Shown here: piece by piece, positions 15,394 to 58,936 of the stretch
Position numbering within the stretch: position 1 is the stretch's first letter
Layout: every line of letters begins with the position of its first letter
From: Nisaea sp.
GTDB taxonomy: Bacteria; Pseudomonadota; Alphaproteobacteria; Thalassobaculales; Thalassobaculaceae
Assembly: GCF_039990255.1 (NCBI RefSeq)
Contig: NZ_JBDXGG010000016.1
Coordinates: 94,958 to 158,957 of the forward strand
Direction of reading: 5' to 3'
DNA: 64,000 nt
Notes under the pieces: generated by a model
Database searches by the model: none
The model's input: only the letters and a program-made list of their open reading frames with translations
Told to the model about the DNA's origin: nothing
Translations under genes and position numbers: made by a program

Positions 15394-15453
15394 TTGCCAA
15401 GGCCCCTTTCCTTTTTCAGCGACGACGACTATTGTCTCGCGACTACCGACGAC

Positions 15454-15632
15454 CCTCAAGGGAGAGACCGGCCACATGGTCGGCGCCGAAGGAGCAACCG
15501 CCCCCGGAAACTCTCAGGCAAAAGGACCTTGAGGCGAGGAACCTCTGGAAAGCAGGCGGGAAACCGCCTCACCCACGGTGAAAGCCCGGCACAGAGTTCG
15601 CCGGGTGAATCTCTCAGGTTAGCGACAGAGGG
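15454..15632 (+). promoter_or_regulatory. tandem glycine riboswitch (two aptamers)
   Basis: Aptamer 1 has P1 cctcaag(15454-60)/cttgagg(15528-34), with 'GGAGAG...CGCCGAAGGAGCAA...CTCTCAGGCAAAAGGAC'. Aptamer 2 has P1 cctctg(15542-47)/cagagg(15626-31), with 'CTCTCAGGTTAGCGACAGAGG'. It lies directly upstream of gcvT. Confidence 0.9.
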
Positions 15633-15683
15633 GGCAGGTTCCGGCGTTTTGCCGGGGTGCCTTTACGCTGACCGGAGAGTGCC

Positions 15684-16781
15684 ATGACGCAACAAACCCT
15701 TCTCAAGACTCCCCTGCACGGACTGCATGTCGAGCTCGGCGCCAAGATGGTGCCGTTCGCCGGCTATGACATGCCTGTTCAGTACCCCGCCGGCGTCAAG
15801 GCAGAGCATCTGCATACCCGCGCCAAGGCCGGGCTGTTCGACGTCTCCCATATGGGGCAGGTTAAACTCTCCGGAGCCGTTGCGGCGCGCGATCTGGAAC
15901 GGCTGGTGCCAGGCGATCTCGATGGGCTCTCGGTCGGCCAGATGCGCTACAGCATGTTCACAAACGATGCTGGTGGTATTCTCGACGACCTGATGGTCTG
16001 CCGGATCGAGGACGGGTTGATGGTCGTCGTCAACGCAGCCTGCAAGGACGCCGATATCGCCCATATGCGGGCGCACCTTTCCTCCGAAATTACCGTTCTT
16101 GAAGACCGGGCTTTGATCGCGCTGCAGGGCCCCGGCGCCGAAATGGCGCTGTCAGCCCTTGCCCCCGCTGCCGCGACGCTTAGCTTCATGACCGGCGCGG
16201 AGATGGATGTGGACGGGGCCGCCTGCTTCGTCACCCGCTCCGGCTATACCGGCGAGGACGGCTACGAGATTTCCGTACCCGGCGATCAGGCCGACGCACT
16301 TGCCCGCAAGTTGTTGGCCCAGAACGACGTGGAAGCCATCGGACTTGGCGCCCGGGATTCCCTGCGCCTCGAAGCAGGCCTTTGCCTGTACGGTCACGAT
16401 ATCGACGAGACGACAACACCAGTCGAGGCTGCGCTTACCTGGTCGATCGGCAAGCGCCGGCGCGAGGAAGGCAGCTTTCCCGGAGCCGACATCATTCTCG
16501 ATCAGATCAAGAACGGCGCCCCGCGCAAGCGGGTCGGCATCCTGCCGGACGGACGGGCACCCGCCCGCGAAGGCACCGAAATCCAGGCGCCCGACGGCAC
16601 CAGCATCGGCACCATAACCAGTGGCGGCTTCGGGCCGAGCCTGGAGGCTCCGCTGGCCATGGGATACGTCACCACCGGGCACGCAGCCGCCGGTAGCGCT
16701 GTAAATGTTGTCGTTCGGGGCAAAGCTCTGCCCGCCGCGACCGCCAAAATGCCATTCGTCCCGAATGGCTACAAACGTTAA
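15684..16781 (+). CDS. gcvT: glycine cleavage system aminomethyltransferase T
   Basis: '[26 protein letters not shown]' and '[11 protein letters not shown]'. 365 aa. GGAGAG RBS. Confidence 0.95.
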
Positions 16782-27377: not shown

Positions 27378-28433
27378 ATGCTGGACTGGATTTCAGAGAG
27401 AAAACATCCACTCGCCTGCATCATCGGCGGACTCTTTGCAGTAGCAATCTTGTTGATCTCAACCCTCCCTGTACTTGCCCAGGACACCTCTACCCACCCA
27501 CGCCTCAAGATCATCAACGGATGCAGCAAAGCCATCTCCATCAATCACGTCGTCGGCGCCGGCGGGGGGACATTGACCGCCCCGAATCCGGCCATTCTGC
27601 AACCAAGCGGCCAGACCGGGGATTCCGTAACATTCAACATTCCGGACAAGGGTCTTGCCGGTACGCGGTTCTGGCCGAGCATGAAGGTACAATGCGCCGA
27701 CGGCAGCTCGGGCTGCTCTATCGGGGAAAGCGGCGGCCCCGGTCTCGCATGTCCCGGCGGGATCGGCTGCGCGCCTCCGGTCGACTCAAAATTCGAGGGA
27801 ACCTTCGGCTGCTTCGCGGCGGAAGCGGCTAAAGGCAATTGCCAGGTCAACCCGTCCGGAAACGGCGCCCCTCTTCCGGAGACGGATGGCTGGGACACCA
27901 GCATGGTCGATGGATATACGCTGCCCTACAAGGTCGAGATCAAGGGAAGCTGTCCGAACGGCCCGAAGAAAAACAAGATCGATTGCAGCGGCCTCAGCCT
28001 CTCCCAATGCCCTGTGAATGAAGATCTCAGCACCAACGGAGCCTATCCTGCACTCGCCAACGAGGATCTGACCCTCACCTTCCCAACATCGAGCGGCGGC
28101 GCGACCGACACCCAGACAGGCTGCTACTCCCCGTGCTCCAAGCTCACTACCGGGAACTGGCAGAACATCCCGAACCCACCATTCTCCGACGGGCCGACCA
28201 CTTACCAACCCTCCGATCCCCAGGCCGACTATTACTGCTGCGGCGGGTCGGTCGGCGTTGAAGCCTGCCGGAACGGCCCGGTGGTGAAGACCAGCTACGT
28301 GAAGATGATTCACGAGGTCTGCCCGCAGACCTACGCCTACGCCTATGACGACGGAACCGGCAATTTCTCCTGCCCGGCCACCGCCGAGACGATCTACGAA
28401 GTCACGTTCTTCTGCCCGCTGCAAGACAGTTAG
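27378..28433 (+). CDS. secreted thaumatin-family (PR-5/TLP-like) protein
   Basis: AAGGAG RBS 7 nt upstream. Signal peptide 'IIGGLFAVAILLISTLPVLA'. About 18 Cys in the mature part. Thaumatin landmarks: 'LKIINGCSKAISI', 'TRFWPS..C', 'DTSMVDGYTLPYKV', 'YYCC' and the C-terminal 'CPQTYAYAYDDGTGNFSCP...YEVTFFCP'. Confidence 0.8.
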   Translation: MLDWISERKHPLACIIGGLFAVAILLISTLPVLAQDTSTHPRLKIINGCSKAISINHVVGAGGGTLTAPNPAILQPSGQTGDSVTFNIPDKGLAGTRFWPSMKVQCADGSSGCSIGESGGPGLACPGGIGCAPPVDSKFEGTFGCFAAEAAKGNCQVNPSGNGAPLPETDGWDTSMVDGYTLPYKVEIKGSCPNGPKKNKIDCSGLSLSQCPVNEDLSTNGAYPALANEDLTLTFPTSSGGATDTQTGCYSPCSKLTTGNWQNIPNPPFSDGPTTYQPSDPQADYYCCGGSVGVEACRNGPVVKTSYVKMIHEVCPQTYAYAYDDGTGNFSCPATAETIYEVTFFCPLQDS

Positions 28434-28476
28434 ACCGCCCGGACGGGATACCCTGCTCGTCCGATGCTCCCCACTC

Positions 28477-28507
28477 AGGATCAGGCCCCTCTCCGGGTCC
28501 TGATCCT
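28477..28507 (+). terminator. rho-independent terminator after the thaumatin-like gene
   Basis: aggatcaggccc-ctctcc-ggg(t)cctgatcct stem-loop followed by a T-rich 'tctttcc' tail. Confidence 0.6.
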
Positions 28508-28622
28508 TCTTTCCGTTCCTCCCCGTTGATCCCGGACGCGCGCCGCGCTTAAACTCCGCGCCTTCGGGCCTCATGGCTCGAAACCTATCGCCCATCTGCT
28601 AATCAACGGAAGAGAGTTGCCA

Positions 28623-29666
28623 ATGGAATATCGCCCGCTAGGACGAACGGACCTGCGCGTCAGCGTCATCTGCCTCGGAACCATGACCTATGGCGAGCAG
28701 AACAGCGAAGCCGAAGGCCACGAGCAGATGGATTACGCGCTGGAGCGCGGCGTGAACTTCTTCGACACGGCGGAGATGTATTCCGTGCCGCCACGGGCCG
28801 AGACTTACGGTCGTACAGAGGAAGTCATCGGCACCTGGGTCAAGGCTAGCGGCAAGCGGGACAAGGTGATCCTGGCGACCAAGGTGGTCGGCCCGGGAGA
28901 GCGCTTCGCCCATGTCCGCGACGGCAATCCGAAATTCAACCGCGAACACATCACGGCCGCTGTCGATGCCAGCCTGAAGCGGCTGCAGACGGACTATATC
29001 GACCTCTATCAGCTACACTGGCCGGAGCGCTCCACGAACACTTTTGGCAAGCTCAACTATGTGCATGCTGAGGAACAGGACTGGACCCCGCTGGAAGAGA
29101 CCTTCGCCGTGCTGGCCGACCTGATCAAGGAAGGCAAGATCCGGCATGTCGGCCTCTCGAACGAGACGCCGTGGGGCACGATGAAATGCATCGCGCTGTC
29201 CGACGCCATGGGCCTGCCGCGTCCGGTCTCCGTTCAGAACCCGTACAACCTGCTGAACCGGAGCTTCGAGGTCGGTCTGGCCGAAGTGGCAATCCGCGAG
29301 GATTGTGGTCTGCTGGCCTACTCGCCCATCGCCGGCGGCGTGCTCAGCGGCAAGTATCTTGATGGTGCCCAGCCGGAAGGCGCCCGGATGACTCTCTTCC
29401 CGGGCAATTTCTCGCGCTATCTGAAGCCGAACGCCGAGGAAGCCACGATCGCCTATGCAAAGCTCGCCAAGGAGTACGGATTCGCGCCCGCAGACCTCGC
29501 CAACACCTTCGTTAACACCCGCCAGTTCACCACCTCGAACATCATTGGCGCAACGACGATGAAGCAGCTCGAAAGCAATATAGACACTGCCGAAATGGTG
29601 CTTCCGGAAGTCCTTCTGGAAGAGATCGAGAAGGTTAACCAACTGTACTCAAATCCCTGTCCTTGA
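28623..29666 (+). CDS. NADP-dependent aldo/keto reductase (Tas-like)
   Basis: 'MEYRPLGRTDLRVSVICLGTMTYG', 'FFDTAEMY' and 'LYQLHWP' are AKR hallmarks. The ORF opens at a TTG at 28617. Confidence 0.9.
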   Translation: MEYRPLGRTDLRVSVICLGTMTYGEQNSEAEGHEQMDYALERGVNFFDTAEMYSVPPRAETYGRTEEVIGTWVKASGKRDKVILATKVVGPGERFAHVRDGNPKFNREHITAAVDASLKRLQTDYIDLYQLHWPERSTNTFGKLNYVHAEEQDWTPLEETFAVLADLIKEGKIRHVGLSNETPWGTMKCIALSDAMGLPRPVSVQNPYNLLNRSFEVGLAEVAIREDCGLLAYSPIAGGVLSGKYLDGAQPEGARMTLFPGNFSRYLKPNAEEATIAYAKLAKEYGFAPADLANTFVNTRQFTTSNIIGATTMKQLESNIDTAEMVLPEVLLEEIEKVNQLYSNPCP

Positions 29667-29697
29667 CAGCCTGCGCGAGCGTGATAGCCAATTATGT

Positions 29698-30321
29698 ATG
29701 AACAGGTTGTTCGTCGCGCTCGCGCTACCCGACCATGTCCGCGCCGCACTCTCCCGGCTGCGCTGCGGTTTTCCCGGCGCCCGTTGGGTCGCGGAAGAAA
29801 ACTTTCACCTGACATTGAGATTCATCGGCGCCGTCGATAACCGTGCGATGGACGACATCGCCGCGCAGCTTGATCGCGTCCGGGAGCCAGGTTTCGACCT
29901 TGAACTTGACGGTTTTGGATGCTTCGAGACCAAGGGCCGGGCCCGCGCGCTCTGGGCCCGGGTCCTGGCCAGCGAAGAATTGCTCCATCTCCAGCGCAAG
30001 GTCGATACCGCTCTCGATGCCGCCGGCGTTGAGCGGGAAACACGCAGGTTCAAGCCTCATGTCACACTGGCCCGCTTCAAGGATGCGCCACTCGGCCCGG
30101 TGAACGACTTCATCTGCGAAGCAAGCCCTTTCGGCACCGGACTGTTTCCCGTCGGCTCCTTCACGCTTTATCGCAGTTTTCTGCACCGGGACGGACCGAT
30201 ATACCGCCCGGAAGTGGTCTATCCTCTGGATGGCGACGCCTTTTCCGATCCCTATTTTGACGAATTCAGGGACGAGGAGGATTACGAAATCACGGACGGC
30301 GTCACCATTCCGTCGCATTGA
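29698..30321 (+). CDS. thpR: RNA 2',3'-cyclic phosphodiesterase (2H family, ThpR/LigT)
   Basis: Two HxTx motifs, 'FHLTLRFIG' and 'PHVTLARF'. The ~207-aa length includes an acidic C-terminal tail. Confidence 0.85.
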   Translation: MNRLFVALALPDHVRAALSRLRCGFPGARWVAEENFHLTLRFIGAVDNRAMDDIAAQLDRVREPGFDLELDGFGCFETKGRARALWARVLASEELLHLQRKVDTALDAAGVERETRRFKPHVTLARFKDAPLGPVNDFICEASPFGTGLFPVGSFTLYRSFLHRDGPIYRPEVVYPLDGDAFSDPYFDEFRDEEDYEITDGVTIPSH

Positions 30322-30392
30322 GGCGGCATCGACACGGTTTTTTCACAAAGACCTGCAAGGATAGCTGCCCGTCAGGAAGGCTTTGGTGAACC

Positions 30393-31151
30393 ATGCTACG
30401 TCTCGTTTGTTTTATCCTCGTGTTCGTCTGTTCAATTCCGCGCAGCGGTGCGGCCGACATCCCGGTCGATATGGAGCTGGTCCTTGCGATCGACTGTTCC
30501 TCCAGCGTGGATGACGAGGAATTCGCCCTGCAGGTATCCGGCATGGCCAACGCATTCCGCGACCCGATGATCCAGGACGCCATCCAGAACGGTGTTGAGG
30601 GCGCCGTCGGAATCTCCATCATCCAGTGGTCCAGCGAGCGCTTCCAGAATGTGGCTGTCCGCTGGCGCCTGCTGACCGGCCCCGCCGATGCGGACAATCT
30701 GGCGAACGAGATCGAGGCGATGCCGCGCACCATCGGCACCGGCGCAACGTCGATTGCCAATGCCCTGCTTTTCTCCGCGAACAGCTTCAACGGGAACGGC
30801 ATGGAGGGATACCGCCGGGTTATCGACATGTCGGCGGACGGCGAGAACAATCAGGGCCTCGATATTCATATCGCACGGGCGCAGGTTCTGGCTCGCGGCA
30901 TCACCATCAACGGACTGGCAATCCGGAATGAGTTCCCCAATCTCGACATGTATTTCGAGGACCGGGTGATCGGGGGCGAGAGAGCTTTTACCGAAGTGGC
31001 GAAAGATTACGAAGACTACCGAAACGCCATCTTCAGAAAACTTTTCCGCGAATTACGGGACGTCCCGGTTGCAGATGGGTCCGGCCTTGACCCATCATGG
31101 AAAGAGGCACTGCTGATGCAGCAGCCTGAGGAGCGGCTTCAAACGCGGTAA
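30393..31151 (+). CDS. DUF1194 domain protein (vWA-like), paralog 1
   Basis: Signal peptide. 'VDMELVLAIDCSSSVDDEEF' is a MIDAS-like DxSxS. 'RRVIDMSADGENN' and 'GITINGLAI' match the DUF1194 pattern. Confidence 0.8.
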   Translation: MLRLVCFILVFVCSIPRSGAADIPVDMELVLAIDCSSSVDDEEFALQVSGMANAFRDPMIQDAIQNGVEGAVGISIIQWSSERFQNVAVRWRLLTGPADADNLANEIEAMPRTIGTGATSIANALLFSANSFNGNGMEGYRRVIDMSADGENNQGLDIHIARAQVLARGITINGLAIRNEFPNLDMYFEDRVIGGERAFTEVAKDYEDYRNAIFRKLFRELRDVPVADGSGLDPSWKEALLMQQPEERLQTR

Positions 31152-31164
31152 TCAGGGTGATGGT

Positions 31165-31854
31165 TTGAAAATTCTGAAAACGGTTCTGGGCCTGCTCCTG
31201 CTCTGCGTCGGGCCATCTTCCGTTGCCCAGAGTGAATATCCCGTAGATGTCGAACTGGTGCTCGCCATCGATTCTTCCGCCAGCGTCGACCGCGATGAAT
31301 TCGATCTGCAACTGCGCGGCCTCGCTCTCGCTTTCAACGACCCAGAAGTGCAGCAAGCCATCCGGGACGGCGCCTTTCAGGCCATCGCGGTAACCTTGGT
31401 CGAATGGTCAAGCGTCGACCGTCAGGCGGTCAACATTCCTTGGCGCCTGATCAATAGCACCGAAAGCGCAGAAGCCTTCGCTGCGGATGTCGCCGCCTCG
31501 GCCCGCATGGTCGATACCGGCGCCACCTCGATCTCGGCCGCTATCGCCTACAGTGTGCCCATGTTCGCCGTGAACGGTTTCGCCGGCCAGCGCCAGGTGA
31601 TCGATATTTCTGGCGACGGCTTTAACAATTCCGGCCGGTTGATGCAGGAAGGCCGCGAGATCGCAAGCAATGCCCGCGTCACCGTCAACGGGCTGGCTAT
31701 CCAGAATCAGGTGCTGGATCTCGGCGGCTATTTCGAGGAAACCGTCATCACCGGCCCCGGCGCCTTCGTCATCACGGCCGAGGACTACGAGGATTACATC
31801 AAGGCGATCCGGCAGAAATTACTGCGGGAAATCAAGGCGGCGCCGATTTCCTAA
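31165..31854 (+). CDS. DUF1194 domain protein (vWA-like), paralog 2
   Basis: TTG start. Signal peptide. 'VDVELVLAIDSSASVDRDEF', 'RQVIDISGDGFNN' and 'VTVNGLAI' are collinear with paralog 1. Confidence 0.8.
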   Translation: MKILKTVLGLLLLCVGPSSVAQSEYPVDVELVLAIDSSASVDRDEFDLQLRGLALAFNDPEVQQAIRDGAFQAIAVTLVEWSSVDRQAVNIPWRLINSTESAEAFAADVAASARMVDTGATSISAAIAYSVPMFAVNGFAGQRQVIDISGDGFNNSGRLMQEGREIASNARVTVNGLAIQNQVLDLGGYFEETVITGPGAFVITAEDYEDYIKAIRQKLLREIKAAPIS

Positions 31855-31901
31855 CGGCATACGTTGTTATAGACAACGCCTCCGCCCTGCACCAATAGAT
31901 A

Positions 31902-31930
31902 TTGAAATTGCAAGCCTCTCATTCTATTAG
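31902..31930 (+). promoter_or_regulatory. candidate promoter for the islet genes
   Basis: TTGAAA (31902-07), a 17-nt spacer, then TATTAG (31925-30). This is a weak match and is speculative. Confidence 0.25.
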
Positions 31931-31960
31931 TGTATTTTTACCTTAACAAGATTGCCAAAA

Positions 31961-34471
31961 ATGTCCGAAATGACAAAGACGCATTACGACATAATCGTTA
32001 TTATCCCACTAGAAGAGGAACTAGTTTCTTTCTTAGAGGTTTTTCCGTCAATTAGAAATTTAAGCACTGAAATAGAATTTCGACATGAAGTAGATTCTAG
32101 AGAATCTGGACTTCGGATACTTGCAGTGCAGCAATTAGATATGGGCCGAACAAGCGCAATGACAGCAACAATTGGAGCCCTTACTGATTTTACAACTGAT
32201 CTAATAGTAAATATTGGGATCGCCGGCGGAATAACAAATGATTATGTTCTTGGCGATATTTGCTACAGTGGAAACATAATTGACTTATATGATAACTCAA
32301 AAATATCTGATACTGATACTGGCGAACAAGTCACAGAATATTCCCCAAACAATTTTGAGACCCCACAATGCATAACATCCGCGCTTAATTTTTCTAGGGT
32401 TCAGCCAGATTTCTTGGCTAAATATAAAGAATGGCAATCTGAGAGAGAAGTTTTTGTAAAATCGTTAGTAAGTACGAAAATTACAAATAGAGATGGCGAC
32501 GATATTGAAATTGGGAAACCCACTACGAAAAACGGTAAAATAACATGCGGCATCGTCAGCAAGAGCGACTTCTACAATAATAAAATCAAAGGAATTGATA
32601 GGCGCTCGCTCGCAATTGACACTGAATCTGGCGGAATATTTGAAATTGCAAAAAAATATAAAGTATCATGCCTAGCTATAAGAGGAATTTCTGACTACGC
32701 AGATAAATCAAAAAACAAACTGGAAAAAGCAACGGGTGGACAAATTCGTCGTATTGCGGCAACGAATGCCGCGTCGTTTTTCCGACTTCAGTTAATTAAT
32801 CCATATTTTTTAAATGCCATTCATATCGTCCACACACAGAATCACCCAGAACACTCTCTTAATTCATATGAACAAAAAAATGACCCGCTCATCAATCTAA
32901 TCGCGTCGTCGAGCCAAGAAATTAAGAACCACCTGGAAAGAACATGCCCCGAGTATAGGTTACATGAAAAAGGGTACAGCCTACCTGTACCGCGCGTCAT
33001 TCCAATGAACTTAAAAACGAAGGAAGAAAAAAGCAGCTCTCCTATCGAATTAAAGAAAACATTACAAACAAACGATCGTGTAATTATTAAAATACCTCAT
33101 ACATTTCCAGAAAAAAGCTTACCCTGGATTATAGCTGATTCACTAATTTCGAGCGAAATTGACGAACGACAAACCGTTCCCATCATCATTAATGCAGACA
33201 ACATTAGAGGAGCCTCTGATACCATTGAGAAACTCTCATCAAAAGAAGCTATTGAATTAGCGGAAAGTAAAAAAATAACTTTAGTCGTTGTTTTGTACGA
33301 CTTTAATCCAAAAACAAAACACAGAGCCAATCTTGTTATCGATCAAATTAATAAATTTTCAAATATAAAATTTATTATAATATCAAGTGGGGAAGGCGAT
33401 ATTTATACTGAATCAAATTTTGAAGATTTAATCAATGCTAAACCATTCAAAATGTGTGGAATTTCCTTCAATGAAGTGACATTTTTTGTCGAAAAGCATT
33501 TCGATATGTCGATCAACGAGGCAGAAGTTGTAGCACTTCGACTTCGAGATACATTTAGAAAATATGCACTTGATGCTCATCCAACATATTTCGCGGGCAT
33601 TTCTCGAGAAACACTTGCAACATTATTACAAGCAAACCGTCGTTCTGAACTTATCGAGCTCGCCGTTGCTGGATATCTATCTTTTGTTGTTGCTGGAGAC
33701 AAAGAAAGCATACGATTAAGTCGCACGACTCGCGCTCGTTTTTTGACAAATCTGCTGATTAAAATGAAAGTAAACGGGGAGACGTTCACACACTCTGAGC
33801 TAGTAAAATTTGCAGAAGATTTCGCTGTGGAAAGTGACTTCAACATAAATCCACTTCAATTCATAAAATCATTTGAAGATTTCGGCATATTACACTTTAA
33901 TGGAAATGGAGTACAGATATCACTTCCATTTATTGAATCATATTTATTAGCAAATGCCCTTAGTAAAGATAGCACTCTTTCTGCCAGATATATAAAATTT
34001 GATAATAGCTTCGTTGATTACGCGACACTTGATATATACTCAGAAATAGGACCTTCAACAGAGATAATAGAAAAACTGGTTACAGCAGTTGATGGATGTA
34101 TTAGTAAGCTTACAACGAACACTCCGGATAACGATTACTTATTGAGTGACGAAGCAACCGCAGCAGGATTAAAACACCCCAAGCGTCTAGAGGCACTGCA
34201 AAACAACCTAGAGGCGGCCTCTAAGTCTGTCCTAAGTGGTGCTAGAAACGCCGAAGAAAAACAGAAAATACTTGATGCTCAAGATTTCGTACGCCGCTCC
34301 GTATCTCATTCATCTCACGAAAAACAAGATAATTATGATGATGACGGGTTCGAAGCAGAAGCCGCTGAATTTGTCGAATGTGTCACAATTTGGGGAATTT
34401 CAGTAGTTGTACTAGGTGCTGGGGCCGAACACCTAAAAGCACCGATTAAAAGAAAATTAGGAAAAAAATAA
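31961..34471 (+). CDS. PNP_UDP (MTA/SAH-nucleosidase-like) domain protein fused to a degenerate P-loop NTPase-like module and a helical C-terminal region; candidate defence protein
   Basis: ORF 31952..34471, with possible starts at TTG 31952, ATG 31961 or ATG 31970. The N-terminus is collinear with MTAN: 'IIVIIPLEEE', 'DLIVNIGIAGG', 'AIDTESGG' and 'LAIRGISDYAD'. The centre has 'RVIIKIPHTFPEKSL' (Walker-A position), 'ITLVVVLYDF' (Walker-B position) and 'FIIISSGE'. Codon usage is AT-rich. Confidence 0.8.
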   Translation: MSEMTKTHYDIIVIIPLEEELVSFLEVFPSIRNLSTEIEFRHEVDSRESGLRILAVQQLDMGRTSAMTATIGALTDFTTDLIVNIGIAGGITNDYVLGDICYSGNIIDLYDNSKISDTDTGEQVTEYSPNNFETPQCITSALNFSRVQPDFLAKYKEWQSEREVFVKSLVSTKITNRDGDDIEIGKPTTKNGKITCGIVSKSDFYNNKIKGIDRRSLAIDTESGGIFEIAKKYKVSCLAIRGISDYADKSKNKLEKATGGQIRRIAATNAASFFRLQLINPYFLNAIHIVHTQNHPEHSLNSYEQKNDPLINLIASSSQEIKNHLERTCPEYRLHEKGYSLPVPRVIPMNLKTKEEKSSSPIELKKTLQTNDRVIIKIPHTFPEKSLPWIIADSLISSEIDERQTVPIIINADNIRGASDTIEKLSSKEAIELAESKKITLVVVLYDFNPKTKHRANLVIDQINKFSNIKFIIISSGEGDIYTESNFEDLINAKPFKMCGISFNEVTFFVEKHFDMSINEAEVVALRLRDTFRKYALDAHPTYFAGISRETLATLLQANRRSELIELAVAGYLSFVVAGDKESIRLSRTTRARFLTNLLIKMKVNGETFTHSELVKFAEDFAVESDFNINPLQFIKSFEDFGILHFNGNGVQISLPFIESYLLANALSKDSTLSARYIKFDNSFVDYATLDIYSEIGPSTEIIEKLVTAVDGCISKLTTNTPDNDYLLSDEATAAGLKHPKRLEALQNNLEAASKSVLSGARNAEEKQKILDAQDFVRRSVSHSSHEKQDNYDDDGFEAEAAEFVECVTIWGISVVVLGAGAEHLKAPIKRKLGKK

Positions 34472-34515
34472 TAGAACTTTCCGCACGCATAATAGATAAA
34501 TGGACCTCATATTCT

Positions 34516-35028
34516 TTGAGAATAAATTTCGACCGTTTTAGGGAAGAATTTTCAGACGAGGCTTTTCTACAGAAACTCCCCGGAGATGAAAGCATTGAGC
34601 AAAAGAGAAAATTCACGCTAAATTTGGTTGACCTTATGGAGATCGAGTCAAAGTCCTATCCGTTTAAAAAAATCTTAGGCTATGTATGTGAGCAGGCTCG
34701 ACAAAATGTCCTAGCCGAGAGCCTTAGAAAAATTGACGTCTCCGGCAAAGTCGAAAAAATTATTCACGGGTCTTGGCTTACTGATATTGAAGCAGATCAA
34801 GGAAAACACTTACTAAAAGATGCGATAAAAAATCTCCCACATGCAGCCCTTCTTCGAATGACTTTATGTTCTCTTTATCTACATCGTATCTATTGGTCGC
34901 ATTGGAAAAAAGACCATAAAATAACATTACTTGAAGCAGCAAACGATGCGATTCGACCGCTCGGGCGAGAAATTAGTGCTTCAGAAATGAAAAAATTGAT
35001 TAAAAGCGAACCTTCAGAAGATGATTAA
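34516..35028 (+). CDS. hypothetical protein: either the partner of the nucleosidase-domain protein or its frameshifted C-terminal continuation
   Basis: 170-aa ORF from a TTG at 34516, with the same AT-rich composition. Its frame is open back to 34450 and overlaps the end of the upstream ORF across an A7 run. The first ATG comes only at the 'MEIESK' codon. Confidence 0.5.
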   Translation: MRINFDRFREEFSDEAFLQKLPGDESIEQKRKFTLNLVDLMEIESKSYPFKKILGYVCEQARQNVLAESLRKIDVSGKVEKIIHGSWLTDIEADQGKHLLKDAIKNLPHAALLRMTLCSLYLHRIYWSHWKKDHKITLLEAANDAIRPLGREISASEMKKLIKSEPSEDD

Positions 35029-35077
35029 CTTCTATAATTCCACATGCAGAAAACGTTTAACTCTCTGATCCCATACT

Positions 35078-36127
35078 TCAACCGCGCACGCCTTCGAACC
35101 CATCCAGAAATGCCGCCAGATTATCCCCGAGCTGATCGGAGATATAACCGCCCTCCTGCACCAGCAGGCTCGGATACCCGGCCTCCGAGATCGTACGGCC
35201 CATGCGGCGGAAGCCTTCCGTGGTGATCTTGCAGAAAGCCAACGGGTCTGCCTCTGAAGCGTCGAGGCCGAGGGCGACGACCAGCACGTCCGGCTTGAAG
35301 GCGGCCACGCTTTCCAGCGCGTCGGCGAGAATTTCGATATAGGCATCGTCGCCGGTGCCCTGGGGCAGTGGGTAATTCACGTTGCACCCGGCCCCCTCGC
35401 CTTCGCCCGTCTCGTGGCCGAAGCCGGTGAAGAAAGGATAATAGGTTGCCGGATCGCCATGCAGGGAGACGGTCTGCACGTCGCCGCGCTCATAGAAGAT
35501 GCCTTGCGTGCCGTTGCCGTGATGCACATCCACATCGAGGATCGCGACCTTTGCCGCTCCCTTGTCCCGCAAGCGCTGGGCCGCGATGGCGGAATTGTTC
35601 AGGAAGCAGAAGCCGCCGGCCTGGTCCGCATAGGCATGGTGCCCCGGAGGACGGCAAAGAGCGTAGAGATAGGCTCCCCTGTTCCCACCGTCGATATCCT
35701 GCACCAAAATGTCAGCAGCGGTTACCGCGACATCTGACGAGGCCAGAGCGCCTTTCCAGGTCCCCTCTCCGATCGGGCAAGCCGTGTCCGCCTGATAATG
35801 GCCTGACTGGGCGACGATATGCTGAGGCGGCTGCGCCATGTTGCGGCCGGAATGCACGTTCGGGATAATCTCGTCCGCATGGTCCGGCAGCGCGCACCAG
35901 CGCTCCCAGGCATTCTCCAGAAAGTCGAGATAACCCGCATCGTGAATCCGGGCCACCGGGCTGGCGCCGTGCGTGCTGGCCGGGGTCAGATCATGGCCGG
36001 CATCCGTCGCCGCCTTGAAGAGGATCTCCGCCCGTTCCGGACGCTCCGGACTCTGCACGATGGCGCCCCGCGTTATGAAGCGTTTCGGGGCATGCACCAC
36101 ATGCCCGTCTGTATAAATCACTCGCAT
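35078..36127 (-). CDS. histone deacetylase family protein (acetylpolyamine/acetoin-type amidohydrolase)
   Basis: 'CRPPGHHA' and 'ILDVDVHHGNGTQ' are zinc-deacetylase motifs. 349 aa. Confidence 0.85.
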   Translation of the reverse strand: MRVIYTDGHVVHAPKRFITRGAIVQSPERPERAEILFKAATDAGHDLTPASTHGASPVARIHDAGYLDFLENAWERWCALPDHADEIIPNVHSGRNMAQPPQHIVAQSGHYQADTACPIGEGTWKGALASSDVAVTAADILVQDIDGGNRGAYLYALCRPPGHHAYADQAGGFCFLNNSAIAAQRLRDKGAAKVAILDVDVHHGNGTQGIFYERGDVQTVSLHGDPATYYPFFTGFGHETGEGEGAGCNVNYPLPQGTGDDAYIEILADALESVAAFKPDVLVVALGLDASEADPLAFCKITTEGFRRMGRTISEAGYPSLLVQEGGYISDQLGDNLAAFLDGFEGVRG

Positions 36128-36154
36128 CTTGTCTACTGCCGCCAGAAAGGAACG

Positions 36155-37687
36155 TTAGAGAGGGATGTTGTCGTGCTTCTTCCAGGGATTTTCGAGCTGC
36201 TTGTTCTTCAGCATCGAGAGCCCCCGGCAAATCCGCCGACGCGTGTTATGCGGCAGGATCACGTCGTCGATATATCCGCGCGCACCGGCAACGAAAGGAT
36301 TGGCGAATTTTTGCCGGTATTCCTCAGTCCGCTCAGCGATTTTCTCCTCATCCCCGAGATCTGCCCGAAAGATGATCTCAACCGCGCCCTTTGGCCCCAT
36401 TACGGCAATTTCCGCCGTCGGCCAGGCGAAGTTCAGGTCGCCCCGCAGATGCTTGGAGCTCATTACGTCATAGGCGCCGCCATAGGCCTTGCGGGTGATC
36501 ACCGTGATCTTCGGCACCGTGGCTTCCGCATAGGCATAGAGCAACTTGGCACCATGCTTGATGATGCCGTTGTACTCCTGCGAGGTTCCCGGCAGGAAGC
36601 CAGGCACGTCGACGAAAGTGACGATCGGAATATTGAAGCAGTCACAGAATCGCACGAAACGCGCCGCCTTCTTCGAGCTTTCGATATCGAGGCACCCAGC
36701 CAGCACCATCGGCTGGTTGGCGACAATGCCCACCGTCGAGCCCATCATGCGCGCGAAACCAACGATGATATTGCCCGCATAATTCGGCTGGATCTCGAAG
36801 AAATCGCCCTCGTCGACGACCTTCTCGATCAGCTCTTTCATATCGTAAGGCTTGTTCGGGTTGGCCGGGATCAGTGTATCGAGGGAAATCTCCGGACGGT
36901 CCATCGTGTCGGCGGTTGGCCGTACCGGCGGTTTTTCACGATTGTTCAACGGCAGAAAATCAATGAAGCGGCGGAGCTGCAGCAGCGCCTCGACATCGTT
37001 TTCGAACGCCATGTCGGCGACGCCAGACTTGGTGGAATGCGTGATTGCGCCACCCAGTTCTTCCTGGGTGACCGTCTCATGCGTCACGGTCTTGACCACG
37101 TCCGGGCCGGTGACGAACATGTAGGAGCTGTCCTTCACCATAAAGATGAAGTCTGTCATGGCCGGAGAATAAACGGCGCCGCCGGCGCACGGGCCCATGA
37201 TCATGGAAATCTGCGGTACCACGCCCGACGCCAGCACGTTGCGCTGGAAAACTTCGGCATAACCGCCGAGGGAAGCGACGCCTTCCTGGATGCGGGCGCC
37301 GCCACTGTCATTCAGCCCAATGACCGGCGCGCCGACCTTCATGGCCTGATCCATCAGCTTGCAGATCTTTTCCGCGTGGGCTTCCGAAAGAGAGCCGCCG
37401 AAAACGGTAAAGTCCTGGCTGAAGACGAAAATCATGCGGCCGTTAACGGTGCCGTATCCGGTCACTACGCCATCGCCCGGCACCTTGTTCTCGGCCATGC
37501 CGAAATCGGTGCAGCGATGCTCGACGAACATGTCCCATTCCTCGAACGAGCCTTCGTCGAGCAACAGTTCTATCCGTTCCCGCGCTGTCAACTTGCCTTT
37601 GGCATGCTGCGCCGCGACCCGCTTCTCTCCACCGCCCGCACGCGCGCCGTCGCGCATTTCACCGAGCCGCTGAATGATTTCCTGCAT
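36155..37687 (-). CDS. pccB: acyl-CoA carboxylase carboxyltransferase subunit (propionyl-CoA carboxylase beta)
   Basis: '[26 protein letters not shown]' and '[11 protein letters not shown]'. 510 aa from 'MQEIIQRL' (the ORF opens at 37714). Confidence 0.9.
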
Positions 37688-37738
37688 TCGTCTAATCTCC
37701 CTGAACCGCGCCACGATAGGCGCAGCCCGCGCGGCGCG

Positions 37739-38434
37739 TCAAACCCGGCAGAAAGTAATGAAACGGGCGGCGTTCGTCATGTCCGCCGCCATGCCTTTAC
37801 GGCGGGCCAGCGCTTCACTGTCTTCGCCCCAGCGCTCAGCCTGGAACAACTCGTCAAGCAACGCGTATTCAATGCCTTTTTCGACCTCAATACGGCCTTC
37901 CAGAACCGCTAGCGCGATCACCAGAGAGCCGAATCCGGTTGTCAGCTGGTAGAGCCCGGACAGAACCAGATCATTGTGTTCAGCGATCCCAACACGCAGC
38001 GCGGCAAGCGATTCCTGGCTCTGGGTCAAGGGCATGATTCCGGCGGTGACGGCAAGTTCTGCGCCGAATCGCTCCCGGCACCAATCCAGCAGCGGCTGCC
38101 AGGATTTGGCCTGCCGGATCACCAGATCGTCCGGATCTTCTGCCCGGTAGCACAACAGATCTGAGCCACCGTAAGCGACGATCTGGTCGATCACGTCATC
38201 TCGCTGCGGCGTTACCCGGTCGATCCCGGTAGCAGACAGCGACATGAAGGGCATTGAGTCCGGGAGGATTTTCTCTCCCTGAGCATTCCATTCGGCGGCG
38301 ATTTTCGCCGCCAGCTCTTCAACCGGCAACAGCAGCGGCGCTTTCGCCGGAGTGCGGACGGGACGATCATCGAGTAAAACCTGATAGCCGCCGTCCGCCT
38401 TCTCAACCGAAGCCGCCTCATAGAACCGTTTCAC
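37739..38434 (-). CDS. ATP12 family F1-ATPase assembly chaperone
   Basis: 'MKRFYEAASVEKADGGYQVLLDDRPVRTPAKAPLLLP...AAEWNAQ' is the typical ATP12 N-terminus. 231 aa. Confidence 0.8.
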   Translation of the reverse strand: MKRFYEAASVEKADGGYQVLLDDRPVRTPAKAPLLLPVEELAAKIAAEWNAQGEKILPDSMPFMSLSATGIDRVTPQRDDVIDQIVAYGGSDLLCYRAEDPDDLVIRQAKSWQPLLDWCRERFGAELAVTAGIMPLTQSQESLAALRVGIAEHNDLVLSGLYQLTTGFGSLVIALAVLEGRIEVEKGIEYALLDELFQAERWGEDSEALARRKGMAADMTNAARFITFCRV

Positions 38435-38438
38435 ACAC

Positions 38439-41400
38439 TCACTCCAAGACTTTCTTGATCCCGCCGAACAGACCGTCCACCGCTTTACCCGGCAACTTCA
38501 GAACATCCTTGCCGGTCTCGATGGCGCCGTCGGTCTTGCTGGAGTTCTTATTCGCTGCCTGCCCTATTTCGGCCGCTTCTTCAGGGCTTTTGCCTTCTGC
38601 CAGTGCGAGCGCCGCCGGGCAAGGATCTTCCGTCTCTCCGGCAGAAACCAGCGGCAAAACGAGCGCTAGCGGGTTGATGGCTGTCAAGGCAACGGCACCG
38701 GCGCCAATCACCGCCGTCTTCGCCGCCCCCGCTGCATCAGGAAGGATAGAGGGATCGGATAGCGGGCCCGAAATTCTGATCGGCGTTGCCAAGCTGACAA
38801 AGCTGAAATCCTTGGGCTTCGGATGCAGCAAAAAATCCACCTGCTCGTCCCTCAGGTCCACTGTGCCGGCACCGCCAACTGTTACCCGTGCACTGTCGAC
38901 AAGAAACACCGTGGAGTTCGCCATGCCGTCAGCGATATCGAACCGGGTCGCCATGCAGTTCAGACGTGCTTCCTCTTCGGCTGTCTTGCCGATGGACGGT
39001 AACAGGCTGCTGACAAGATCAGCCGCGATCAACTCCCAATAAGTATTCGAGACCATACCGTCTTTCAGATAGAGCGCGGCATGGCCATTGACCGTGTCCA
39101 TCGCCTCGCGAGGGGTGCGGCCGCTGGCGGTCAACTTGACCGACGAGCTGCCATATCCACTGAATACATCAGTCTGGAAATACTCTCGAAGAACGAGACC
39201 GAAATGAGCGTCGGTCCAGGTGCCGTCGATTGCGAAATCGGAAAGCGGGGCTTTACGACCATCAATCTTGGCCTTCAACTTAACCAAACCTTCGTTGAAG
39301 ACTCCCTCGGAAGGAAGGACGGAGAGGACCCGGTCCTGCAAGGTCGCATTCAGATGCATGTCATCAACGGCGAGACCCGGCAGACGAAGTGCGGCAACCG
39401 TGAGTTTGATCGAGCCATCGGCACGGTCCAGCACGTCCACCGGAAAGGGCTTGTCTAGCGCCTCTTCCGACGGAGCATCCGCCTTCACCTTCTCTGCCGG
39501 CTTGTCCGTGGAAACCCCGTTCCCATCATCGAGATAAGGCTCTAGATCAAGAAGCGTACTAACCAGATCAATTGACGCATTCGGCCGATCGCCTTCCAGA
39601 CCGAGCCTAACGGAACCGGTCAGATCCGAGCGCCCGATATGAGCATCGAGGCCTGTGAGCATGACGCTGGTGAACCGGTCACCCACCTGAACCAATGTCA
39701 GAGCGCCCTTGATCGCAACTGTCTCACCGACCGCTGTCCCACTAAAATCGAAGGGCAGAGCTTGACCTTGTTCAACCAGAGCCTTGATCGATGGAAACCG
39801 GCCCACAATGTCGAGGCCGCGTTCGCCGAGACGCCCGACGATGCGACCTTCGAACGGCTCTGCCATGGACACGGCTTTCAGGGAAAGCGTGTCGATTTCT
39901 ACCCGCTCGTCATGACCGGAAGAGGCCGAAGTGTAACGGACATTATCTAGTTTGATGCCGAAAGTGCCATCGACCGAAGACAGCATGGAGGCAAGGGTCC
40001 GCCCCTCGCCGACCAGGTCAACGTCTATATCCGCCCGTCCGGATGCATCACCGTCAATACCGAAACGTTCCGCAGCAACTCCGACATCAATGTCATTCCA
40101 GGCCAGCCGGGAGGAAATCTTGGTCTGAGCGCCAAGTGCCTCGACCCGAGCCGAGGCAGAAAGTTTTGCCTTTGCCAGCATCATTTCCGGGACGGAGAGC
40201 GACAGCACCTCGTCCTGCAGGCTCAGCGCAATATCTAGATCCTTTACCTTGTCCTGTGCCGTTGTCACTTCGGCGGCCCGAATGTGGGCCTCACCGGAAA
40301 TGCCCTTAAGAACAAGTCTCTTCAACGGCGTATCGAGACGGATACCGGCAACATTCTCGACCAGTTCCAAGACGGCTTCCGGGTCGGTGCCGCTAGCATC
40401 AAGCTGGATGTCGAGTTTCGAGACGGAGAAATCCCGCCCCGCGGCCGAGCCAGCCGGGGCGTTGTAACGTACCAGCGGCAACGCCGCCTTCGCATTAACG
40501 GTGGCGCCTGCCATCAGCTCGCCGATAGTCTTGCCTGCTGTCTTTACGGAAACGCTCAGATTACCTCCAGCCTCAAGCCCCGTCGTTTCGACGGCTATCC
40601 CGGCAAGTCTGTCGAAATCCGCGCCTTTAATGGAAAGGTCAGCTGCAACCAAAAGGGCGCGGCCGTCTTTCTCTACTTCCGCCTGCAATTTGATCGGCGA
40701 ACCTGCATAGACTGCCCAGAACGGAGAGACCGACAGCTTGCCGTTCTTCATCGAGAGGGTCAGCGCGATGTCTGAGGCCTCGGTGGCGCTTGACTTGAGG
40801 GCCTTCACGTTCAGCGATAGATCCACATCGGCCTGCTCCAGCCAATCCGTGGAGATACGCACGTCTAGAATGTCACGGACATCGCCCGCCCGAGAATTGC
40901 TGCCTTTACTCTTCGAGGAACCGACGGCGCTCGTCAGCGCCTCAATCTGGCGCAAATCCATGAGCTGGGATTTGAGAGTACCGGAAAGACTGGGAACGCG
41001 GCCGGCTGTATCGAGTTTCAGATCGCCCGCTATATCGGAGGAAAACAACCGGGCCTCCAGCCCCTGAACGGCAACATTGGCGGGAACGCCATCCTCATAA
41101 GCGAAGAGTAATTTGCCCGCGACGCGGAACGGCTGCCCCAAGGCCTCGCCACTGATATCGAAGGGCTGCGGCGCGCTGGCATCGCCGAGCGCCACGGCGG
41201 GCGGCAACGTACCGGCGATGTCGATGCGCTTGCCGTTAATGGACATTTTAACGATCGCCTCGACCGGATTTTCGAAATCCGGCGCGTCCAGATCGATGGA
41301 GTCGATTTCGACGAGGTGTTGCTGCCCCTCAACCTCGTCGCTGTAAACCACATCGACGTTGATCAGGGTGACGCTTTCGATGATCGGGAAAATGCTGCTG

Positions 41401-48826: not shown

Positions 48827-48916
48827 TATCATGCGCTGCTCAAAGCGGTTTCGGGTCCCGAAATTCGCGGAGATCGCTCAGCTTGACCACGGGCTTTTTG
48901 AATGTATTGTCGAAAC

Positions 48917-49108
48917 TGATGGTTTTCCTTAGGCGAGCGCCAAAGGAAATGAAAAGAGAACATGGTGCGGTGTACCCATTAGGGGCCAAATCCATGGCTG
49001 CCCCCGCAACTGTAGGCGGATAGCGGACGTCGACGACACCACTGACTGGAAACAGTCGGGAAGGTAGACGAACTGCTGATATCCGTGAGCCAGGAGACCT
49101 GCCATCGC
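48917..49108 (+). promoter_or_regulatory. cobalamin (B12) riboswitch
   Basis: P1 gatgg(48919-23)/ccatc(49102-06). Core 'AAAAGAGAACATGGTG...CCCCCGCAACTGTA', 'CCACTGACTGGAAACAGTCGGGAAGG', and the B12 box 'GAGCCAGGAGACCTGCC' (49087-49103). Confidence 0.9.
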
Positions 49109-49231
49109 AAGAACTTGCAACCGGACGGGGTGCTTCGGGCGACGCAATGAAAGACATCACAGTTTTTCATTACGAAAGCGGTGGCGGAAATACGCCACGC
49201 TGTCCCAGCGCCTCGGCAGTGGAGATGGGAC

Positions 49232-58402: not shown

Positions 58403-58936
58403 TTACTTCTTCTTGCCTTCCTTGCGGAGGATGGTCTCGGTCTCGTACTTAACACCCTTGCCCTTGAAGGGCTCCGGCGGACGATACCCGCGGATCTCAG
58501 CCGCGATCTGACCAACCTTCTGCTTGTCGGCACCATGGATCGAAATCGCCGTCGGACGCTCACACTTCATGGTGATGCCTTCCGGGATCGGGTAGTTCAC
58601 CGGGTGACTGAAACCGAGGGCAAGAACCAGGTTCTTGCCTTCGACAGCAGCACGATAACCGACGCCGTTGATTTCCAGGTTGATCGTGAAACCGTCCGAC
58701 ACACCCGTTACAGCGTTCTGGACGCGAGCACGCATGGTGCCCCACATCGCCCGGGAACGCTTGGAGGCATTCTTCGGCTTCACGGTGACCAGGTTGTCCT
58801 CGATCACGATGTCTACAGCATCGCTGAGCGGAACAGAAAGCTGGCCGAGTTTGCCCTTCGCGGAGAAGACGTCAGCGCCGATTTCGGCGGTAACGCCGCT
58901 CGGAAGAGCGACTGGGTTTTTACCAATACGTGACAT
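58403..58936 (-). CDS. rplF: 50S ribosomal protein L6
   Basis: '[15 protein letters not shown]' and '[14 protein letters not shown]'. Confidence 0.97.

Follow-up and report, generated by a model that had tools for sequence, protein, structure and literature searches.

We analyzed a 64,000-nt stretch of a marine Nisaea sp. genome (contig NZ_JBDXGG010000016.1, positions 94,958 to 158,957 of the forward strand; hereafter the window). Near its middle an AT-rich insert carries a gene for a predicted NLR-like protein, with an N-terminal nucleosidase domain of the PNP/MTAN (5'-methylthioadenosine/S-adenosylhomocysteine nucleosidase) fold. Two open reading frames (ORFs) are listed there, both on the plus strand and both with a TTG start, at 31952..34471 (839 aa) and 34516..35028 (170 aa). 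An earlier note, made from the sequence alone, took them for the sole credible genes of an AT-rich insert, and their coordinates, their strand and the GC dip were confirmed. The GC content is 0.31-0.41 at 32.0-35.0 kb vs 0.55-0.65 in the rest of the window (~0.60 in the surroundings), and at 1-kb resolution this is the sole such dip in the 64 kb. No other credible gene was found in the island, in which the minus-strand ORFs are of at most 89 aa and lack support. The features of the island are as follows:

31855..35077, no strand assigned: inserted AT-rich island, 3,223 bp (BLASTN against the empty site of a related genome, L007, and GC step)
31961..34471, plus strand: upstream frame of the broken gene, 836 aa from ATG 31961 (the maximal ORF, from TTG 31952, has 839 aa)
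31979..32842, plus strand: PNP/MTAN-fold nucleosidase domain, residues 10-297 (Pfam, PADLOC, Foldseek and alignment to MTAN)
32012-32020, 32624-32626 and 32690-32695, plus strand: predicted catalytic residues E21-E23, E225 and S247-D248 (alignment to MTAN and conservation)
33077..33502, plus strand: predicted NOD-like alpha/beta domain, residues 376-517 (AlphaFold2; five beta-alpha units, predicted local distance difference test score, pLDDT, mostly 75-90)
33095..33118, plus strand: loop PHTFPEKS at the Walker-A position, residues 382-389 (between strand 376-381 and helix 390-399 of the model)
33512..33919, plus strand: predicted helical domain (residues 521-607) and winged helix (614-656) (AlphaFold2 secondary structure and Pfam nSTAND_NTPase4)
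33926..34468, plus strand: first part of the helical C-terminal region, residues 659-839, in frame (all-helical in the AlphaFold2 models)
34462..34468, plus strand: run of seven A residues (A7) at which the frame breaks (three-frame translation; context GGA AAA AAA TAA)
34468..35028, plus strand: out-of-frame tail of 186 codons and a stop, the end of the helical C-terminal region (BLASTP to the C-termini of homologues)

The limits of the insert were set by comparison with another Nisaea sp. genome (L007, GCA_034670185), in which the flanking genes are syntenic and the island is absent. By BLASTN, window positions 28001-31853 (89% identity) and 35082-38963 (87%) align to the adjoining positions 6003 and 6005 of L007. 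Because both flanks align to adjacent positions, the insert is taken to be 31855-35077 (3,223 bp). It is placed between the stop codons of two convergent housekeeping genes, for a DUF1194 protein and an HDAC-like deacetylase, and in the empty site these stop codons overlap within CCTAGCC. The GC step is sharp at both borders. The island DNA is of foreign origin and was horizontally acquired, as had been proposed, and the empty site and the low GC content both speak for it.

Searched against the database, the 839-aa product found 14 full-length relatives (P0002-P0015) of 1,022-1,095 aa, 36-44% identical to it at a query coverage of 99-100%; in all, ~100 full-length relatives are single polypeptides of 1,000-1,060 aa. 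The 170-aa ORF covers the last ~165 residues of the relatives. By BLASTP it aligned to residues 862-1024 of the 1,027-aa homologue P0004 (40% identity, E 9e-45) and to the tail of P0002 (46% identity, E 3e-46). The upstream frame ends at TAA 34469-34471, immediately 3' of the A7 run, and three-frame translation revealed that homologous sequence resumes in the -1 frame directly from this run. The tail so defined has 186 codons, of which the listed ORF, from TTG 34516, is the distal portion. One added A, or a -1 slip on the in-phase A_AAA_AAA, yields a 1,025-aa protein with a junction that reads ...KRKLGKKIIELSARIIDKWTSYSLRINFDRF..., and in the alignment of this restored protein with the relatives no gap falls at the junction or in the 15 residues that precede TTG 34516. 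On these alignments, the two ORFs are one gene for a ~1,025-residue protein, split by a 1-nt frameshift. Of the two roles offered in the earlier note for the 170-aa ORF, a partner or a frameshifted tail, the tail is the one that the homologue alignments and the A7 junction uphold. At the other end of the gene, the homologues begin at the equivalent of M4-M7, and the true start is probably ATG 31961 (836 aa, as in the public annotation) or ATG 31970, not TTG 31952.

The tail agrees with the family at 6/6 of the columns conserved at 90% or more and at 10/10 of those conserved at 80% or more. Its mean identity to the family is 0.283, vs 0.282 for the in-frame sensor body, so that it is no more degraded, which suggests that the frame break is recent or tolerated. 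The allele is also found in other assemblies. Public records have 5 contigs with the exact 836-aa product and 6 with the 170-aa product, of up to 161 kb in length, and the locus L010 (GCA_039964065.1) matches the window at 100% identity over 8,592 bp, frameshift included. The NCBI contig of MEP1150930.1 (3,337 bp; ~window 32000-35330), deposited in a 'Balneola sp.' metagenome-assembled genome (MAG), encodes this truncated protein with a single change, Y to S. An 85-aa piece of the Nisaea HDAC-like gene on this contig shows it to be the same Nisaea locus; its binning as Balneola is an error in the public MAG, presumably due to the low GC content of the island (37%). Four further A7 runs in the gene are read in frame and, together with the recurrence of the allele, they make a homopolymer sequencing error or a chimeric assembly very unlikely. 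We regard a recent inactivating slippage mutation, from A8 to A7, as the most likely reading of the break, and hold it with good confidence. As read from the DNA, the gene product in the window lacks the last 186 residues unless the frameshift is rescued, and -1 slippage on A_AAA_AAA could at best bring a minor share of it to full length. The intact, self-contained system that the earlier note had seen in the island is therefore not what the window holds.

A nucleosidase fold had been proposed for the N-terminal part, and both profile and structure searches confirmed it. Pfam PNP_UDP_1 (PF01048) matched residues 14-276 (E 1.5e-12, over the gathering score), and Foldseek returned MTAN and futalosine hydrolase at E ~1e-11, with a TM-score of 0.8 on the target; MTA/SAH nucleosidases and futalosine hydrolase are also the nearest solved sequences and structures. 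The domain carries insertions at residues 114-190. In the alignment to the MTAN chains 6if8 and 4wkb, T224-E225 fell on the ribose-binding Glu of the 'EME' motif and S247-D248 on the catalytic Asp of the 'SD' motif. E225, D248, R244 and G89 are invariant in 101/101 family sequences, and E23 is kept in 99/101. D248, previously picked out as a catalytic residue, thus occupies the expected place. The invariance of the catalytic residues implies that the effector domain is under strong purifying selection and, judged by these residues, the domain is very probably an active N-glycosidase on an adenine compound. By analogy with known PNP effectors, the substrate would most likely be ATP/dATP or a related adenine nucleotide. 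Among 15 relatives, the PADLOC model of the CBASS 'PN-superfamily' effector matched all (best E 9e-13) and the PDC-M60C model matched the PNP domain of 14.

The region beyond the nucleosidase was analyzed with two AlphaFold2 models, one of the full-length protein (pLDDT 81.6, predicted TM-score, pTM, 0.70) and one of the post-PNP part alone (pLDDT 81.6, pTM 0.79). With the full-length model the PNP domain dominated and Foldseek gave only MTAN-type matches; the last 730 residues were re-modelled alone. With that second model, the matches in the PDB were NOD2 (5irm, E 7e-7), the NACHT module of NLRP3 (8e-6 to 1e-4), the phage-portal-bound Avs4 (8dgf, 1.9e-4) and the archaeal STAND-like ATPases PAB2304 and SSO1545 (6-9e-4), and in BFVD a siphovirus 'NLR family' protein (1.9e-6). 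From the models, residues 376-656 are predicted to have a NOD fold, composed of alpha/beta, helical and winged-helix domains. The structure search proposed in the earlier note thus gave MTAN for the PNP part and NOD2, NLRP3 and Avs4 for the rest, and the tripartite architecture of an effector, a NOD-like switch and a helical sensor was borne out by the models. By sequence, the post-PNP module found nothing meaningful among PDB chains (best E 0.45). Pfam nSTAND_NTPase4 (PF24406; 58 positions, gathering score 27 bits) is the only Pfam family that matched the NOD-like module. It covers the winged-helix motif FSLPFIESYLLA, which extends to 33952, and it matched 13/14 relatives (best E 4.3e-10), with P0034, P0112, P0098, P0047, P0038 and P0022 exceeding 27 bits; the window copy (residues 611-665, 20.5-21.6 bits) is sub-threshold.

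The middle of the protein had been described as having the motifs of an NTPase, of which the fold was recovered and the motif was not. No Walker A (GxxxxGK[ST]) was found in the NOD-like module, and no glycine-rich loop is present in the family. The loop at this position instead follows the consensus P(77)-[RK](68)-x-Y(94)-P(97)-[DE](92)-x-[S60/G18/A14], where the counts are per 101 sequences. As read from the family alignment, a conserved non-glycine loop has replaced the glycine-rich P-loop family-wide. The Walker-B position is D/E in 61/101 sequences and the sensor-1 position R/K in 71/101; these positions are vestigial, not invariant, and the window copy has Y449 (then D450) at the first and S479 at the second. 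With a non-canonical P-loop, the switch probably does not depend on ATP being bound or hydrolysed in the canonical way. Because the Walker A was looked for and not found, we did not file the family as a bona fide member of the STAND NTPases or of Avs.

K388, suggested beforehand as the Walker-A lysine, lies in the correct structural place, but the 'GK' position holds Lys in only 19/101 family members, and the assignment was rejected.

Residues ~659-1025 are all-helical in the AlphaFold2 models, without a Pfam or PDB sequence match. Mean family identity is 0.28-0.33 in this C-terminus vs 0.37-0.42 in the PNP and NOD parts, which makes it the most variable region. The helical C-terminus is presumed to be the sensor, and its variability is as expected of one.

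A profile of the post-PNP module collected 372 clusters at 50% identity, 259 of them with E<=1e-30, among 1.84 billion representatives. The module begins at residue ~290-315 in nearly all full-length members, and the length outliers are mis-called starts or truncations in which PNP_UDP_1 is still present; the PNP effector is fixed in the family. In species-representative genomes, 33/33 loci are alphaproteobacterial (Sphingomonadales, Hyphomicrobiales/Rhizobiales, Acetobacteraceae and others), scattered and not clade-wide. The GC content of the gene is below that of its flanks in 31/34 loci (e.g., 0.42 vs 0.71 and 0.45 vs 0.71), also in L001-L005.

The genomic contexts of relatives were read in a qualitative sample of ~10, which is not a statistical enrichment test. 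In Novosphingobium (L001 2462-13084, GCA_977007765.1) an intact homologue is cargo of a P2-like prophage, between regulatory genes and gpD, in the order integrase, Ogr/Delta, GapR-like, homologue, gpD, gpU, tape measure, tube and sheath; its position looks like a variable cargo site of the prophage. The Methylobrevis homologue is a lone insert between an MscS channel gene and uvrB. One relative is found in an island with M78-UvrD-PDDEXK, Multi_ubiq/ThiF/BubE and caspase-helicase genes, one adjoins extracellular contractile injection system (eCIS) genes, one adjoins GmrSD-HNH, M78 and Beta_protein genes, one is in a siphovirus-type prophage fragment (IMG/VR), and one is beside a large serine recombinase. 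An Acetobacter relative is carried by a mobilisable plasmid, among toxin-antitoxin genes, a type I restriction-modification system and insertion sequence (IS) elements. Within this sample, the pattern of contexts is that of a mobile defence gene. The defence-type role put forward in the earlier note was upheld on this ground, namely the location of relatives in P2-like and siphovirus-type prophages, in defence islands and beside the serine recombinase.

The L001 prophage adjoins a 2'-5' RNA ligase-family gene, and the Nisaea island is two genes from LigT; this is probably a coincidence.

Broken copies are frequent in the family. On the Acetobacter oryzifermentans plasmid NZ_CP011122.1 (L006 8751-8759, a complete sequence) the member is interrupted at a run of nine A residues (A9) in the PNP-NOD linker, within CTC AAA AAA AAA CTC TAG. 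It is annotated as two 'hypothetical proteins', and +1 A or a -1 slip restores the frame. A Bradyrhizobium sp. copy (L049 6001-8389, GCA_054822585.1) is truncated by an IS630-family element. Two loci have 5' deletions (L011 lacks the PNP domain, and L013 the first 200 residues), L035 and L045 have kilobase insertions, and L040 an internal deletion. The reading frame shifts in L037, L047, L048 and L015, some of which come from MFD metagenome bins where base-calling errors are possible. Furthermore, many PNP-only ORFs of 250-480 aa are present on long contigs. Such frequent loss fits a costly or toxic gene.

These results suggest, with a probability of about 0.7, that the gene product is an abortive-infection protein of the Avs/NLR-like type, whose effector is predicted to be an ATP nucleosidase, and that the window holds a recent frameshift allele of the gene, most likely inactivated. 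By analogy with Avs and bNACHT proteins, the helical C-terminus would keep the protein inactive until a phage-derived trigger is bound, and binding would lead the NOD module to drive oligomerization. Enzymes of the PNP/MTAN fold are obligate oligomers whose active sites form between subunits. Oligomerization would bring the PNP domains together, and the active sites would be assembled at the subunit interfaces. The assembled nucleosidase would then cleave an adenine nucleotide, most likely ATP/dATP, by analogy with the ATP nucleosidases Cap17, DtcC and a fungal NLR PNP domain, and the infected cell would no longer support phage growth.

Several observations weigh against this interpretation. 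The PNP domain scored nearly equally with the CBASS PNP effector (35 bits), PDC-M60C (40) and MtnN (39) models, and the nearest PNP domains outside the family are mostly stand-alone 'nucleosidases' of ~300 aa; the few effector-type fusions among them are with AAA_16, CHAT, TIR or PF19960. A profile search gave the domain no firm place in the Cap17 immune clade. The NOD assignment comes from predicted structures, with global TM-scores that are low (0.22-0.29) because several domains are superposed at once. In 14-15 relatives, neither the Pfam NACHT, NB-ARC and AAA (AAA_16) models nor the PADLOC Avs/AVAST and bNACHT models matched at E<=1; of the PADLOC check that the earlier note had called for, the effector models answered and the Avs/bNACHT models did not. 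No alternative effector was found on the NOD-sensor module among the best 150 representatives. Finally, no tested phenotype or enzyme activity of family members is reported in the literature searched, and a search for the family accessions or the Pfam name found no paper.

A bolder version of the proposal is that the protein is a nucleotide-independent NLR, in which the NOD module would be an ATP-free oligomerization switch coupled to an ATP-destroying effector, and in which slippage on A-tracts (A7 in Nisaea, A9 in Acetobacter) possibly gives a toxic gene an on/off control that is reversible or leaky. An ATP-free switch would suit such an effector, because an ATP-dependent one would shut off as ATP drops. 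We put this forward only tentatively, as an improbable but serious possibility.

Regulated or phase-variable expression of the gene is rather unlikely. Here a low and tolerable level of the full-length protein would be made by programmed -1 ribosomal frameshifting or transcriptional slippage on GGA AAA AAA TAA, or the run would alternate reversibly between A7 (off) and A8 (on), and either route would limit the cost of a toxic effector. The sequence at 34462-34468 has the form of a slippery heptamer (X_XXY_YYZ), with A_AAA_AAA in phase with the upstream frame and the stop codon immediately after it. The 5-6 assemblies all carry this allele, one of them from a strain that differs at one amino acid, the tail keeps all the highly conserved residues at a family similarity equal to that of the in-frame sensor body, and the Acetobacter plasmid member is broken at its A9 with the same +1 A or -1 correction. 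However, no slippery run was found at the equivalent position in homologues, with an in-frame A7 nearby in L003 only. No stimulatory RNA structure was found in 34469-34560 (minimum free energy -10 kcal/mol, z = +0.9), where 164/200 shuffles fold at least equally well. A-runs are not significantly enriched vs synonymous-codon shuffles (5 observed, 3.9 +/- 1.0 expected, p = 0.29), and runs of at least 8 A are rare in intact relatives. No A8 'on' allele of the Nisaea gene is on record, and other copies are plainly dead through IS insertions and deletions, which points to general decay.

That the 839-aa protein and the 170-aa product are separate partners of a two-gene system, the second being a split sensor or a regulator, is very improbable. 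The public annotation does have two coding sequences, of 836 aa and 170 aa, and the 170-aa ORF is open and co-oriented, but the ~100 full-length relatives are single polypeptides and 0/34 genome or viral loci of the family are split at the A7-equivalent point. The gap-free alignment runs on through the 15 residues before TTG 34516. The upstream part of the tail contains no ATG, which leaves TTG 34516 as the earliest possible start, and no Shine-Dalgarno motif was seen by eye before it. The partner model was rejected on the homologue alignments.

We give as little credence to a housekeeping nucleoside-salvage enzyme of the MTA/SAH nucleosidase family, a reading that the earlier note had named as one that would overturn its own. 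NCBI names the relatives '5'-methylthioadenosine/S-adenosylhomocysteine nucleosidase family protein', the nearest solved structures are MTANs, and the catalytic Glu, Glu and Asp are conserved. The MtnN equivalog cut-offs are nevertheless missed by far (39.2 bits vs 169 for NF004079; 22.5 vs 73.8 for TIGR01704), and the domain is fused to ~730 residues of NOD and helical region. Moreover, a close Nisaea relative has the perfectly syntenic site without the gene, and the gene's sporadic distribution, foreign GC content, prophage, plasmid and defence-island locations and frequent pseudogenisation do not fit a salvage enzyme.

An assembly or binning artefact, i.e., a chimeric join with DNA of a low-GC organism and a homopolymer error at the frameshift, finds some footing in the sharp GC step at both borders and in the binning of the 3,337-bp contig with Balneola, but is scarcely credible, as that contig has the same Nisaea junction in another assembly, the gene pair is on 5-6 contigs of up to 161 kb with 100% identity over 8.6 kb in L010, the two borders meet at a single nucleotide of the empty site, and the four other A7 runs are read in frame.

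The preferred reading, an Avs/NLR-like protein with a PNP effector, places the family within a kind that is already known. N-terminal PNP domains had already been described in bacterial Avs/NLR-like proteins and fungal NLRs, and ATP nucleosidase activity was demonstrated for Cap17, DtcC and a fungal NLR PNP domain, with D353A abolishing the function of DtcC (Rousset et al. 2023, bioRxiv 10.1101/2023.01.24.525353). The description of the locus as undescribed was therefore too strong, the more so as nSTAND_NTPase4 touches the family. What sets the family apart is the conserved replacement of the P-loop, the fixed effector and the restriction to Alphaproteobacteria, a modest novelty; the family is most likely a variant of the STAND/Avs kind that works like one.

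The family shares with bacterial Avs/NLR-like proteins that carry a PNP effector the single polypeptide, the N-terminal PNP domain, the central NOD-type module, the helical C-terminus, and horizontal mobility in prophages and defence islands. It differs from them in the lack of a canonical Walker A and of any PADLOC Avs or Pfam NACHT/NB-ARC/AAA match. Its effector is always PNP, whereas effector swapping is usual in Avs families, and its C-terminus has no recognisable TPR or other repeat. With Cap17 of CBASS and DtcC of Detocs it has in common the PNP_UDP_1 fold, the conserved catalytic Asp (D248 in the window protein) and the match of all 15 relatives to the CBASS effector model, but those proteins are activated via a cyclic-nucleotide sensor (SAVED) or a phospho-relay, whereas here a NOD-sensor module is fused to the effector. 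Fungal and animal NLRs with PNP_UDP (e.g., NLRN, Hyaloscypha variabilis) follow the same effector-NOD-sensor logic, and their PNP effector releases adenine from ATP; unlike the Nisaea family, they carry canonical NACHT/NB-ARC P-loops and TPR, ANK or WD repeats, and no direct sequence relationship to them was found beyond the shared folds. KpAvs8 is a defence STAND protein with degenerate Walker A/B motifs, which EcAvs8 keeps (Nature 2026, PMC13581612). There, however, the Walker degeneration is in one homologue, whereas in the window family a replacement loop is conserved family-wide, and effectors and sensors differ as well.

Further models match single parts of the protein. PF24406 matches the winged-helix motif of 13/14 relatives, although the window copy is sub-threshold (21.6 vs 27 bits). 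PDC-S60, a PADLOC single-gene model of 1,027 positions, is weakly collinear with the NOD and winged-helix domains (residues 440-671 of P0008, L003; E 1.8e-5) and matches 10/15 relatives at E<=1. We take the PDC entries of PADLOC to be candidates, and PDC-S60 may be a sister family flagged as a defence candidate; both PDC-S60 and PDC-M60C match the window family weakly or over one domain only. MtnN resembles the protein in its fold and in its catalytic Glu/Glu/Asp arrangement, but is a stand-alone housekeeping enzyme of ~230 aa, whereas the window protein is multidomain, with 1,025 aa and a 730-residue regulatory region.

If the interpretation holds, the family would be a compact single-gene NLR-like receptor that has kept the NOD fold, has given up the canonical ATP-binding loop and acts through a metabolite-depleting effector, probably one that cleaves ATP. 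It would then bear on how far NLR activation needs nucleotide exchange, and it would add an Alphaproteobacteria-specific, prophage-borne defence gene to the catalogue. The stretch 31855..35077 as found is a truncated allele, which repair of A7 to A8 would restore to the full-length frame. In the public databases, the annotation of the pair as 'MTA/SAH nucleosidase family protein' and 'hypothetical protein' is misleading, and so is the Balneola binning.

The surroundings of the island are ordinary, and the flanking proteins share clusters of at least 90% identity with those of Nisaea spp. To the left are genes for an aldo-keto reductase, LigT and two DUF1194/vWA paralogues, and to the right those for the HDAC-like deacetylase (minus strand), propionyl-CoA carboxylase beta, ATP12 and AsmA. 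The island is joined exactly at the stop codon of the second DUF1194/vWA gene (31165-31854, plus strand). No target-site duplication was found at its borders, and around it no flanking repeats, no integrase or transposase genes and no nearby tRNA. The island DNA had no match in phage records, and a protein search of these gave a weak PNP match in a Staphylococcus phage and nothing else.

The DUF1194/vWA paralogues directly left of the island stand in tandem (30393-31151 and 31165-31854, plus strand), and the pair is kept in other Nisaea genomes.

One further feature, seen in the sequence itself, lies at the island's left edge:

31862..31878, plus strand: perfect 6-bp hairpin CGTTGT-TATAG-ACAACG

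This hairpin is possibly a terminator for the DUF1194 gene, and was missed by the terminator scan because it has no T-run. In the scan of the island, promoter and terminator sites were no more frequent than in shuffles, and no plus-strand promoter matched upstream of the gene. By eye, a weak candidate promoter, TTGAAA-17-TATTAG, is seen at ~31903-31931.

A few observations concern other parts of the window. The 697-aa ORF at 35819-37912 (plus strand) runs antisense to the propionyl-CoA carboxylase beta gene (36155-37714, minus strand) and overlaps part of the HDAC-like gene in the same way; it is a shadow ORF of the kind typical of high-GC DNA and not a gene. ARAGORN called a 92-nt 'tRNA-Asp' with the unusual anticodon ATC at 58426-58517 (minus strand), where Rfam has no tRNA at the gathering score; the call is probably either a false positive or an intron-like oddity. 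Tandem glycine riboswitch aptamers (RF00504) are present on the plus strand at 15449-15539 (73.6 bits) and 15540-15638 (37.7 bits), upstream of an ORF that begins at 15684, and a cobalamin riboswitch (RF00174, 111.9 bits) is found at 48903-49120 (plus strand), shortly upstream of ORFs that begin at 49181.

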